A stretch of 64,000 nucleotides of DNA. Origin: an uncultured Bacteroidales bacterium (lineage in GTDB: Bacteria > Bacteroidota > Bacteroidia > Bacteroidales > WCHB1-69). Position numbers and translations under genes: made by a program. Below the pieces are notes generated by a model. The model searched no databases. It worked only from the letters and a program-made list of their open reading frames with translations, and was not told the origin of the DNA. This document shows positions 22,846-45,918 of the stretch, one piece after another; the stretch's first letter is position 1, and the number at the start of each line of letters is the position of its first letter. The stretch is from positions 3,796 through 67,795 of the forward strand of contig CAMVIT010000001.1 of assembly GCA_947167635.1 (NCBI GenBank), written 5' to 3'.

Positions 22846-23238
22846 ATGAGACACTTTATCGTAACATTGGTCCTGATAATCAGTTGTGTACACTGTATGG
22901 CGCAAAACTCTGTGCATTACAGCGTGGAGCCTGCCATTGCCAACATCCAGGATGATTATGTGCGCACATGGAGGCGTCTGGGCGAGATGAACGGCTATCG
23001 CATTCAAATCGCGGCGGTTACGGGCACCAATTCGAAAAGTACGGCTGAAAGCGAGCGTTATCTTTTTCAAAGCCGATACCCGGATATTCCCGCCTACATC
23101 TCTTATATGGAGCCCTATTTCAGAATCAGGGTGGGCAATTTCGCCTCCCGGCTCGATGCCTACTTCGCCCTGCAGGAGATCATCTCCCTGTATCCGAATG
23201 CCTATATTATTCCGGATAAGATTACATATTCAAATTAG
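22846..23238 (+). CDS. SPOR-domain (peptidoglycan-binding) protein
   Basis: 130 aa with a signal peptide. The C-terminal GYRIQIAAV...YFRIRVGNFASRLDAYFAL pattern is typical of SPOR repeats. Only the 3' third of track ORF 22162..23238 is kept; the rest is antisense to mreB. Confidence 0.65.
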   Translation: MRHFIVTLVLIISCVHCMAQNSVHYSVEPAIANIQDDYVRTWRRLGEMNGYRIQIAAVTGTNSKSTAESERYLFQSRYPDIPAYISYMEPYFRIRVGNFASRLDAYFALQEIISLYPNAYIIPDKITYSN

Positions 23239-23276
23239 TGATTAGTGAAGAGTGATCAGTGAACAGTGATCAGGGA
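23237..23276 (+). repeat. Heptad tandem repeat (AGTGANN) x5 plus one degenerate unit
   Basis: AGTGA occurs at 23237, 23244, 23251, 23258 and 23265, and AGGGA at 23272, with an exact 7-nt period. The repeat begins inside the SPOR gene stop codon. Confidence 0.8.
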
Positions 23277-23335
23277 TTATTTCCAACAGCCATCAGCTAT
23301 TCGCTTTAACTATAAATTCTTAACTCTATTTGAGC

Positions 23336-23700
23336 AGCCCCGTTAGGGGCTAGAGTTCGGTAGAAATGGGACGGTGCGCGGGAAAATCGCGGCGCGGGAG
23401 AGGGTTGAGACGAGGGTGTTCGTTGCTCGCCGCGAAGCGGGTTTGGGGTTCGACGAGCTTGCGTGAGGGATTGAAGCGGGAATGATTTTGGCGGGAATGC
23501 GTTCCCTGCGAGACGGAGGTTCCGTTTGACGCTTCGTGTCTCGCGGAATGATGGTGGGTTCTATGCCAAAATCATTAGAGCGGAAAGCCCGACGGCGCGA
23601 CGGCATTTGATTGCGTGCGCAATTACGGATGCATTTCCGTGCCGCCGCGCCGGCACGCCCAAATAAAAAAAAGAAGCAAAAGCCCTGATTTGTACCATCA
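23336..23700 (+). repeat. Copy 1 of a GC-rich ~314-nt repeated non-coding element (candidate structured RNA), with an upstream GTTA-loop hairpin
   Basis: 23387-23700 aligns colinearly with 44433-44746. I hand-counted about 20 differences over the first ~220 nt. Conserved long-range stems are present. A 1-nt indel breaks the minus-strand ORFs that cross it. A hairpin AGCCCC-GTTA-GGGGCT sits at 23336-23351. Confidence 0.75.
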
Positions 23701-23757
23701 AGTGTATAAGGAACTATCTTTTTCCAAAAAAAGCAACCATCGTGTCGGATAATTCAT

Positions 23758-26082: not shown

Positions 26083-26155
<73 letters not shown>

Positions 26156-26159
26156 CTCA

Positions 26160-44309: not shown

Positions 44310-44362
44310 CAAAAAATCATTTTCCTTTTCCCAAAACCTGCGTTTGTCAATTTTATTGGTGG

Positions 44363-44755
44363 TTATATACCTGATGGCACCAGACCTGCATGAGCAGGTC
44401 TCTAAGCAACGCATTTTTCTAACGCCTCCCTTTCGCGGCGCGGGAGAAGGTTGAGACGAGGTTGTGCGTTGCTCGCCGCGAAACGGGTGTGGGGTTCGAC
44501 GAGCCTGCGTGAGGGATTGAAGCGGAAATGATTTTGGCGGGAATGCGTTTTCTGGCGAGACGGAGGTTCCGCTTGACGCTTCGCGTCTCTCGGAATGGTG
44601 GTGGTGTCTAAGCCAAAATCATTGCAGCGGAAAGCCCGACGGCGCGGCGGCATTTGATGGTGTGTGCAAATGTGACATAATTACCGTCGCCGCGCCGGCA
44701 CGCCCAAATCAAAAAAAGGATGCAAAATCCCTGATTTGTGCCATCAGGTATATAA
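44363..44755 (+). repeat. Copy 2 of the GC-rich repeated element, bracketed by a perfect 18-bp inverted repeat
   Basis: TTATATACCTGATGGCAC (44363-44380) and its exact reverse complement GTGCCATCAGGTATATAA (44738-44755) flank a hairpin AGACCTGC-ATGA-GCAGGTCT (44382-44401) and the 44433-44746 homology block. Confidence 0.75.
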
Positions 44756-44763
44756 TTCCCGTT

Positions 44764-45918
44764 TTATAATATGTAATCGTTTATTTCTTCCAAAAAGCGG
44801 ATCACTTTGTCCGGATTCTTTTCATCAGTGGGCAAATTGAGCATCTGCGATGCTTTTTCAACGGCTATGGGGTATTTGTCGCCTTGCAGATTCCATTGCT
44901 CCCAGTGCTCGCAGACAGGGTGGATGGGGCTGCAAAACCATTCGCCAAGCGGTATGTGCTGTTTCTCGGCCATTTCCAACACTTTTTCCCTTTGGGACAC
45001 CAATAGGGGAAATTTCAAAAAAGAGTGGTCGTCAAAAAGTGCGGGGTTTACAGCGGTTTTGCCGTGTTGCCGGAGGTAGTCGTTGTAAATACGGGCATTG
45101 TTTTTCCGAAGAGCCATGGCATTGCCAAGATGCTGCAGGTTTTGCAGCCCTTTTTTCATTTGTGTGGGCGACAGGGCTTTGAAATAGTGATCGGGCATGA
45201 GGGTGGAGATCAGTTCGGCACCGCCGGAAGAACCTTGGACGAGGTTGTGCCGGCTCAGCCACCGGTAAAGGCGTATCATCCACCAGTAACGTTTTTCGGT
45301 GAGTATTTTTTCACGCACGAAATAGAGCATGGATAAAGAGAGGGCGTCTTTTCGGGTGGCCGGTTCCATCTGGCTGTTGACGGCTGCAATTTTCGATGCC
45401 AGTTCCGGATTCTGCACCCAGGCGAATCCACCCACACCAGTGCTGAAAGGCTTGTTCCATTGGGTGGAATAAAAGGCTGCATCGCAGTAGCTGCCGTTCG
45501 GTTTGCCATGGTAGCTGCCACCAAACCCGTGGGTGCAGTCCTCTATGGTGTAGATCCGCCGGCTGTGTGCCAAAGCTTGTATCTGTTCCACGTTGGATGA
45601 CAAACCGAACGTGTTTTGGCAAATGATCACCTTGGTCCGCTCCGTGATGGCTTGTTGCAGACACTGCAGGTCGGCATTGTAAGTGACGGGATCGATGTCA
45701 ACATAAATGGGGGTCGCCCCCAAATATTTGATGGCGTTGGGTACCACCACGCAGGTGAAGGCAGGTATGACAACTTCATCGCCCTGATGCACATCCATAG
45801 CTTTCAAGATGGCATAGAGCGCGACCCTGCCCTTGTAATACAGGTGAATATGATCGGGCGAAGTGTGCAAATACGCCGCGATGGATGTTTTATACTGATG
45901 CTCTATGTCACGTTTCAT
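44764..45918 (-). CDS. DegT/DnrJ/EryC1/StrS-family PLP-dependent sugar aminotransferase
   Basis: ~384 aa with family-like blocks (DEVVIPAFTCVVVPNAI, IEDCTHGFGG, FYSTQWNKPFS). The ATG at 45918 overlaps the upstream GT2 stop (ATGA). Confidence 0.7.
   Translation of the reverse strand: MKRDIEHQYKTSIAAYLHTSPDHIHLYYKGRVALYAILKAMDVHQGDEVVIPAFTCVVVPNAIKYLGATPIYVDIDPVTYNADLQCLQQAITERTKVIICQNTFGLSSNVEQIQALAHSRRIYTIEDCTHGFGGSYHGKPNGSYCDAAFYSTQWNKPFSTGVGGFAWVQNPELASKIAAVNSQMEPATRKDALSLSMLYFVREKILTEKRYWWMIRLYRWLSRHNLVQGSSGGAELISTLMPDHYFKALSPTQMKKGLQNLQHLGNAMALRKNNARIYNDYLRQHGKTAVNPALFDDHSFLKFPLLVSQREKVLEMAEKQHIPLGEWFCSPIHPVCEHWEQWNLQGDKYPIAVEKASQMLNLPTDEKNPDKVIRFLEEINDYIL

Follow-up and report, generated by a model that had tools for sequence, protein, structure and literature searches.

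Two GC-rich repeats of an uncultured Bacteroidales bacterium as enlarged Flavo-1 elements with a three-way-junction fold, probably carried by a non-autonomous IS1595-type transposon

In a stretch of 64,000 nucleotides from an uncultured Bacteroidales bacterium (contig CAMVIT010000001.1; the whole stretch is called the window below), we studied two GC-rich non-coding repeats, copy 1 and copy 2, which a covariance model places in the Flavo-1 family (RF01705) as long-form, lineage-specific enlarged elements. Their plus strand is the structured strand and has helices under selection, and copy 2 is a transposon insertion that is present in some and absent from other strains of the same species. In the explanation that fits best, the structured block would be the cargo of a non-autonomous transposon (MITE, a miniature transposable element with inverted repeats) with 23-bp ends of the IS1595 family. 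We consider this account, which takes in the fold and its selection, the model-based assignment to the family, the polymorphic insertion, the ends of the transposon and the family identity of the transposase, to be probable though short of certain. New here are the three-way-junction architecture, the long and short forms, and the apparent carriage by phages and MITEs.

An earlier note, made from the sequence of the window, had described the repeats as two colinear copies in the same orientation that are GC-rich and intergenic, and this description held. A repeat finder reported direct repeats at 23387-23508/44433-44554 (93% identity) and 23508-23622/44555-44669 (89% identity), and in a MAFFT alignment the copies were colinear from TCGCGGCG (23387/44433) to about 23712/44760 with few indels of 1-2 nt, the overall identity of 23387-23714 and 44433-44760 being about 90%. 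An anchored core pattern of 21 bases had exactly two matches in the window and none in 100 shuffles. The GC content is 0.56 in the element and 0.43-0.49 in the flanks, and the GC skew of the element is +0.2 to +0.3. Both copies lie between housekeeping genes. Of the extent given before, the starts at 23387 and 44433 are right for the repeat and the ends at 23700 and 44746 fall short, since the terminal inverted repeat reaches 23714 and 44760; as the start of copy 2, 44433 had to be given up, because the mobile unit begins upstream at 44358. Minus-strand open reading frames (ORFs) of 87 and 83 amino acids cross the copies. They align over the first 35 residues only, after which the frames diverge, and are not a conserved gene; we thus rejected a coding reading, in agreement with the frameshift argument of the earlier note.

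The earlier note had not recognised the element as RNase P, 6S, SRP, tmRNA or a familiar riboswitch. It does belong to a known family: both copies match the full Flavo-1 model (positions 1-76) on the plus strand, at 23452-23598 with 34.3 bits (copy 1) and at 44498-44645 with 39.2 bits (copy 2), with E-values of 1.6e-5 and 6.5e-7 in local scans and of 0.0017 and 7.6e-5 over the whole window. At the Rfam gathering thresholds the window has one match, a tRNA-Thr at 26083-26156. The GAUUGAAGCGG and AGCGGAAAGC loop sequences are exact in both copies and lie on opposite sides of one hairpin. No match to either copy was obtained with the Rfam models for HEARO, IscB/TnpB omega RNAs, Bacteroidales-1, Bacteroides-1 or retron msr, even at E-values up to 10; BLASTN of the element against collections of plasmid and phage records gave no match in either, and a literature string search on the conserved motifs returned nothing relevant. 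A K-turn, a tRNA-like minihelix with CCA, domain IV of the signal recognition particle RNA and a bridge RNA were weighed by eye only and set aside, as their consensus features misfit the sequences. The 2010 description of Flavo-1 (Weinberg et al., PMC2864571) comments on it in a single sentence and gives no function. Rfam labels it as "Gene; sRNA" (small RNA) and draws its consensus structure as a single hairpin.

Comparison of 100+ relatives from Bacteroidota and Spirochaetota revealed that the hairpin published for Flavo-1 belongs, as one of the arms, to a three-way junction, which consists of a closing helix P1, the GAUUGAAGCGG/AGCGGAAAGC arm (P2/P3), a variable hairpin P4 and a CC(C)AAA tail. 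A family scan with GATTGAAGCGG-N(85-115)-AGCGGAAAGC, using one genome per species, returned at least 118 loci, about 103 of them true members, in Bacteroidales, Flavobacteriales, Lentimicrobiaceae, Chitinophagales, Sphingobacteriales and Spirochaetes. P1 comprises 5 bp and pairs the bases immediately 5' of A-GG-GAUUGAAGCGG with those immediately 5' of CC(C)AAA; P4 is an optional hairpin after CCGAC, from 10 to more than 100 nt in length. In the table of at least 118 genome loci, compensatory changes occur in P1 (GCGUU/AACGC, GCGUG/CACGC, GCGGC/GCCGC, GUGGC/GCCAC, CGGGU/ACCCG, CCGUU/AACGG and GCAGU/ACUGC), in P2 (GGG/CCC to GCG/CGC or CC/GG), in P3 and in P4. Within a genome, homology between copies is confined to the segment from P1 to CCCAAAU, and the copies are well diverged with compensatory changes between them.

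Quantification of pairing gave the same picture. In 22 constructs in which the P3 apex alone was replaced by GAAA, 93.5% of the alignment cells pair, compared with 32-52% when the partners are slid, and 15 pairs show double changes. A covariance model built from these 22 relatives with the window excluded (R1) found 89 natural elements in 100 sources. In their alignment 95.7% of the cells pair (31-48% when slid), 398 cells show double changes, and neither the covariation score nor the paired fraction was equalled in any of 500 shuffles; 18 of the 23 modelled pairs carry compensatory changes. The unpaired motifs GAUUGAAGCGG and AGCGGAAAGC are invariant in the 89 relatives, across two phyla, and both arm strands together form a nearly two-fold symmetric, purine-rich A-[GC]-GG internal loop, which may resemble the binding site of a dimer. 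The selected plus-strand fold that had been read from two copies now stands on strong covariation in about 90 relatives.

R1 matched the window exactly twice, end to end, with 57.2 bits for copy 1 (E 5e-13) and 56.7 bits for copy 2 (E 7e-13), and all five helices are formed in both. It also coincides with elements that exceed the Rfam gathering score (L012, L033, L142, L144, L145, L148 and L149), and it is this double match that argues for the window copies being long-form Flavo-1. The junction of copy 1 spans 23459-23663 (plus strand): P1 pairs 23461-23465 with 23654-23658, P2 pairs 23467-23469 with 23588-23590, the conserved loops GAUUGAAGCGG and AGCGGAAAGC lie at 23469-23479 and 23579-23588, P3 pairs 23481-23492 with 23565-23576 (AATGATTTTGGC/GCCAAAATCATT) below an expanded apex at 23493-23564, P4 pairs 23594-23605 with 23640-23651 (GGCGCGACGGCA/TGCCGCCGCGCC), and the CCAAA tail is at 23659-23663. 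The junction of copy 2 is at 44505-44708 (plus strand). Two stems that had been named from the window alone are thus family helices, AATGATTTTGGC/GCCAAAATCATT being P3 and GGCGCGACGGCA/TGCCGCCGCGCC being P4. The copies differ from each other in 5 of 106 paired and 48 of 229 unpaired columns of the consensus structure of a 12-member subfamily, a structure derived partly from both window copies themselves. All five stem differences keep or restore pairing, four as G-C/G-U exchanges that can be read only on the plus strand and one as A.C to G-C. The claim that the differences are structure-constrained was therefore correct, and the change from GGGAA-TGCG-TTCCC to TTTTC on which it drew is visible in the MAFFT alignment.

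For the strand, we compared whole elements. The plus strand folds better in 80 of the 89 members, by 8 kcal/mol on average (p 1e-13; RNA parameters), GC skew is positive in 82 of 89, and G-U makes up 10% of the pairs on the plus strand compared with 6.6% on the minus strand.

Among the matches listed, the closest full-length relatives of the window copies are found in rumen or gut Bacteroidales metagenome-assembled genomes (L001, L045, L077, L085 and L105). This rumen-Bacteroidales subfamily has an expanded P3 and P4 (by 70 nt and 50 nt in the window copies) and an additional, conserved 5' hairpin. The 5' domain lies at 23387-23458 in copy 1 (plus strand; hairpin of UCGCGGCG at 23387-23394 with CGCCGCGA at 23428-23435, then a linker) and at 44433-44504 in copy 2 (plus strand; UCGCGGCG at 44433-44440 with CGCCGCGA at 44474-44481, then a linker). 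Its stem is invariant in 12 relatives and for that reason yields no covariation information. Two further elements (L185, about 1789-2140; L187, 1295-1800) have IS1595-type ends and the CGCGGCGCGGG...CGCCGCGAAA 5' hairpin without a Flavo-1 core, so that the 5' hairpin and the core are separable modules. At the other end of the size range are short forms of 70-107 nt on phage-like contigs, which R1 scores with up to 81 bits; such short-form junctions occur on the IMG/VR contigs L139-L149, which are classed as viral, with two in L147. Many long forms (e.g., L011, L013, L016, L020 and L021) share a hairpin at the tip of P3, G(A/G)GCGACC-NNN-GGAAGC(U/C)C, with tandem purine mismatches and the words AGCG/GAAGC as in the core; the window copies are without it.

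The insertion of copy 2 became apparent from contigs that encode a purine nucleoside phosphorylase (PNP) superfamily protein identical to that of the window. The spacer between the DegT and PNP genes is about 487 nt in L123-L125 and the window, as opposed to 72-83 nt in L126, L127 and L129-L131. Alignment of occupied and empty alleles delimits a clean insert of 403 bp (44358-44760) with inverted repeats at its ends. Read on the plus strand, it consists of a left terminal inverted repeat (44358-44380; GGTGGTTATATACCTGATGGCAC, identical to the consensus of insertion sequence (IS) ends at 19 of 23 positions), a short left arm (44381-44432, with a hairpin AGACCTGCATGAGCAGGTCT at 44382-44401), the 5' domain, the junction, and an A-rich tail with the right terminal inverted repeat after it (44709-44760; GTGCCATCAGGTATATAATTCCC at 44738-44760, identical at 22 of 23 positions to the end of the transposase-bearing element in L193 described below). 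The inner 18 bp of the two ends form a perfect inverted repeat. The empty allele (L126, L127) contains one ATTTTATA; in the occupied allele the insert is preceded by ATTTTATT (44350-44357) and followed by GTTTTATA (44761-44768), a putative, decayed target-site duplication of 8 bp. The allele of L129-L131 reads gtcaaTGTTTTTG-CCC-TTTTATaat, which would be consistent with an excision footprint. The earlier note had seen no mobile gene nearby, which is true of transposases in the window; its picture of an element free of mobile context does not survive the 403-bp insertion, its IS1595-type ends and the empty sites.

A scan of viral and metagenome collections revealed that the end motif is widespread in rumen samples. 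In L193 the same 23-bp repeats enclose an element of 2867 bp, which is flanked by a perfect 8-bp duplication (TTTATTTT) and encodes a protein of 311 amino acids with DDE_Tnp_IS1595 (2e-44) and Zn_ribbon_IS1595 domains. Close or partial copies of this transposase adjoin the motif at nine further loci, some of which are overlapping samplings of the same contigs. Elements with these ends and without a transposase measure 403, 494, 506, 668, 758, 1011 and 2045 bp and carry unrelated cargo. Perfect 8-bp duplications were found in L193, L194 (the informative AGAAATTT), L151, L184, L186 and L201, where L151 and L184, like L189, represent one and the same element; a target duplication of 8 bp is the rule in the IS1595 family (PMC8101967). 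In another species, L105 contains a full 668-bp version with both ends and with the TTGAGCAG-hairpin modules that are found left of copy 1. Copy 2 and the IS are homologous over only about 26 bp at either end, which makes the structured block cargo and not an IS end; the outcome that the earlier note would have taken as a refutation, a block that is simply the terminal part of a known IS, thus does not apply. We dropped the ideas that the terminal motif is a promoter, an extracytoplasmic function (ECF) or sigma-54 site, or an inverton repeat, as the same motif bounds the transposase element with its 8-bp duplications. Copy 2 would then be an entire unit of 403 bp that went into an A/T-rich target of 8 bp, and its mobilisation would presumably be in trans, through an IS1595 transposase of the kind found elsewhere in the same communities, including on phage-like contigs.

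These ends are also found in other settings. The 2045-bp element (L151, 9247-11291; also L153, L156, L184 and L189) lies on rumen phage-like contigs between IS1595-type ends and a perfect 8-bp duplication; it has no transposase, its two or three ORFs gave no confident hit in Pfam or PHROG (one PHROG hit was marginal, E 0.009), and it resembles a mobile insertion cassette that sits in the genome of a phage. The transposase-bearing element of L193 has, at 7531-9234 of L193 on the minus strand, a passenger ORF of 567 amino acids without a Pfam match and with repeated units of about 35 residues (...KY...EF...AY..A...GW.DDYTWF...). The IS end often abuts a conserved, terminator-like hairpin, AAAAAGTCAGCC(N6)GACTGACTTT (L176, L177, L183, L188, L190, L192 and others), and the target duplications are A/T runs, which together suggest that the IS may prefer the U-tracts of terminators as insertion sites.

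Copy 1 differs from copy 2 in its margins. To its left is a strain-variable arm (23329-23386, plus strand) with TTGAGCAG and the hairpin module GAGCAGCCCCGTTAGGGGCT (23332-23351); to its right, an A-rich tail is followed by a decayed terminal inverted repeat (23664-23714, plus strand; GTACCATCAAGTGTATAAGGAAC at 23692-23714) that agrees with the IS1595-type end at 16 of 23 positions. Copy 1 is present at all six places listed for contigs encoding an identical SPOR-domain protein, with a spacer of 601-670 nt that varies because of different left modules and a variable heptamer repeat. In L119, L120 and L122 homology starts at window position 23369 with 99.3-99.9% identity and a different gene upstream, and L136 has a different hairpin module left of copy 1. 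Copy 1 would thus fit an older, decayed copy whose left side may have been exchanged by recombination. Two further contigs (L128, L132) match copy 2 up to P4 and then continue with the sequence of another copy and a clpX flank. The exchanged flanks or modules of L128, L132, L119 and L136 suggest that the dispersed copies, of which the genome has at least three, may act as recombination substrates that reshuffle gene neighbourhoods within the species; the alternative is chimeric assembly at repeats.

Small GC-rich hairpin modules left of the 5' domain are shuffled, duplicated and swapped (window 23329-23365; L045, L077, L085, L105, L119, L136 and L187). They are of the types TTGAGCAG plus CCCCGTTAGGGG, CCCCAGACT...AGTCTGGGG and CCAGGGG...CCCCTGG, and together behave as a modular repeat system of their own. 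A heptamer microsatellite (AGTGATT/AGTGAAG/AGTGATC/AGTGAAC) follows directly after the SPOR-protein gene at 23238-23285, and its number of units differs among the conspecific contigs L133-L137. Comparable short periodic repeats adjoin Flavo-1 elements at many unrelated loci, e.g., L004, L021, L099 and L114.

Several observations weigh against the account given so far. Both copies score below the Flavo-1 gathering cut-off of 42 bits, which we attribute to an insertion of about 70 nt in the apical loop that depresses the score. In the proximal conserved helices G-U (0.9%) is no more frequent than A-C (1.2%), which is unusual for a selected RNA; we therefore base the choice of strand on the folding of whole elements and on base skew, and the earlier argument from G-U pairs is valid for the four exchanges in the window copies and fails as a generalisation. 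The target duplication of copy 2 is identical in only 6 of 8 positions, copy 1 has no left terminal repeat, and the window has no transposase gene. In other Flavo-1 subfamilies the unit stops precisely at P1...CCCAAA without terminal repeats or target duplications (for general Flavo-1 units, duplications were not above the control level), so that transposon carriage is a property of this subfamily and not of the Flavo-1 family. Finally, 14 of 83 loci are antisense to both of their neighbours, which is left unexplained if the fold acts as RNA in read-through transcripts.

As to what the fold does, the surroundings of the family offer little that recurs. When the 635 ORFs that flank 103 loci were compared all against all by BLASTP, no neighbour protein recurred, the largest family being shared by 5 of the 103 loci, and the flanking genes are convergent at 27, divergent at 23, co-directional at 19 and antisense at 14 loci. 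The scattered orientations and the lack of a recurrent neighbour family ruled out a cis-regulatory leader or riboswitch. There is one copy per 8 kb at the loci, with one exception, and no arrays or doublets. Dispersed intergenic repeats such as ERIC, BOX, Correia/NEMIS and REP occur in either orientation, form long imperfect hairpins and have a modular make-up that includes insertion variants; their proposed role lies within read-through transcripts, on the stability, processing or termination of mRNA. By analogy, the Flavo-1 fold may be an RNA within read-through transcripts that binds a protein or stabilises or insulates, like these repeats, and not an independent sRNA gene, a reading that we put forward tentatively and hold at roughly one chance in three.

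The family context argues against a standard sRNA gene. Such a gene would act in trans, have its own promoter, yield a separate plus-strand RNA of some 300 nt with a protein or target mRNAs as binding partners, and use the transposon as a means of spread. It seems unlikely to us even though the fold is strongly selected and strand-specific, the loop sequences are kept across phyla, the orientation is independent of the neighbours as for an autonomous gene, Rfam classes the family as an sRNA gene, and Flavo-1 is one of the transcribed unannotated regions in the list of a long-read study of Leptospira. Upstream of 87 loci, no Bacteroidetes -7 box (TAnnTTTG) was found at a conserved position. In a scan of copy 1 alone, its plus strand had neither a sigma-70-like promoter upstream nor a terminator-like site downstream. 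Upstream of the conserved unit, the two copies differ in sequence, as do the strains, and the Flavo-1 matches of Flavobacterium psychrophilum fall on either strand of transcribed regions or outside transcribed DNA, many of them being untranscribed or antisense (PMC9723704). Somewhat less likely still is that the junction is a functional RNA or single-stranded DNA (ssDNA) that belongs to mobile elements and not to the host, perhaps a cofactor, a decoy or an anti-defence RNA whose protein-binding site has two-fold symmetry and which hitch-hikes in IS1595 MITEs and phages. If true, ownership by mobile elements would explain the multi-copy, orientation-free spread across the phylum, and an orphan motif would gain a mobile-element biology.

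That the fold acts as ssDNA, with the junction extruded on one strand as the recognition site of a recombinase, HUH-type enzyme or replication protein in the manner of REP/RAYT or attC systems, we regard as improbable. The almost purely Watson-Crick proximal helices, in which G-U is not favoured over A-C, would suit this idea, as would an orientation unrelated to transcription, the many untranscribed matches (PMC9723704), a dispersed multi-copy family with units delimited exactly by the closing helix, and an apex that varies like the terminal structure of attC sites. Yet no recombinase or HUH gene recurs near the 103 loci, arrays, doublets and target duplications are lacking, and orientation relative to replication, judged by the GC skew of the flanks, is not significantly biased (46:30, p 0.11); the higher G-U share and better RNA-parameter folding of the plus strand also speak against it, with the limit that G-T pairs in DNA would fit too. 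Very improbable, finally, is neutral repeat DNA in which the structure is only apparent, a product of recent shared ancestry and of accidental helices in GC-rich sequence. Single-sequence folding is indeed unexceptional (z-scores of -2.1 and -1.3 on the plus strand and of -2.8 for the minus strand of copy 1), and the invariant 5' hairpin lacks covariation support. Against this stand the compensatory changes at 18 of 23 modelled pairs in 89 diverged relatives, the 95.7% of cells that pair where slid partners give about 46%, and loop sequences invariant across two phyla, which contradict the neutral reading for the core and leave it possible for the subfamily-specific 5' domain and tail only.

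In comparison with Flavo-1 as described (PMC2864571), the window copies share the hairpin with GAUUGAAGCGG/AGCGGAAAGC purine-rich loops and an apex of variable length, the occurrence as non-coding, multi-copy elements in Bacteroidota and some Spirochaetota, and the end-to-end match of one junction model to them and to Rfam-passing members. They differ in the added 5' hairpin, A-rich tail and transposon end and in P3 and P4 expansions of 70 and 50 nt, and the Rfam model is without P1, P4 and the CC(C)AAA tail. With IS1595 MITEs and mobile insertion cassettes they have in common the 23-bp terminal repeats of copy 2 (19/23 and 22/23 to the transposase-bearing element), a putative 8-bp target duplication at an A/T-rich site, the lack of an own transposase, presence or absence among strains, and sibling elements whose same ends carry unrelated cargo of 0.5-2 kb; passenger-carrying members are reportedly typical of this family. 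Unlike those elements, the cargo in the window is a conserved module of the structured-RNA type and neither a passenger gene nor a deleted transposase, and the left end of copy 1 is lost. To ERIC, BOX, Correia and REP there is no sequence relation: these are genus-level repeats, far less conserved than the Flavo-1 junction with its invariant unpaired motifs across phyla. REP/RAYT and integron attC systems differ in that no RAYT or integrase neighbour recurs at the 103 loci and the copies are neither clustered nor arrayed. The minisatellite-containing MITE of Porphyromonas gingivalis (PMC4596501) is alike, going by its description, as a Bacteroidales MITE with a complex repetitive interior, and nothing indicates a Flavo-1 core in it.

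With the larger architecture, searches gain a better model, and probing and pull-downs can start from defined ends. Long forms with expansions of 70-100 nt and short forms of 70-107 nt on phage-like contigs are natural variants for comparison, and the occupied and empty alleles within one species amount to a natural knock-in and knock-out for the effect on expression of the neighbouring gene.

Copy 1 lies downstream of dxs, mreB and the SPOR-domain protein gene and upstream of folD and an M64 peptidase gene, and has the same direction as its neighbours. Copy 2 runs antisense to the genes on either side, with aroB and the PNP gene (PF01048; minus strand) upstream and genes for the DegT aminotransferase and a GT2 protein (both minus strand) downstream. 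The tRNA-Thr gene at 26083-26156 (CGU; anticodon CGT) is on the plus strand; the genes on its two sides are those for the M64 peptidase and for a PfkB-family kinase.

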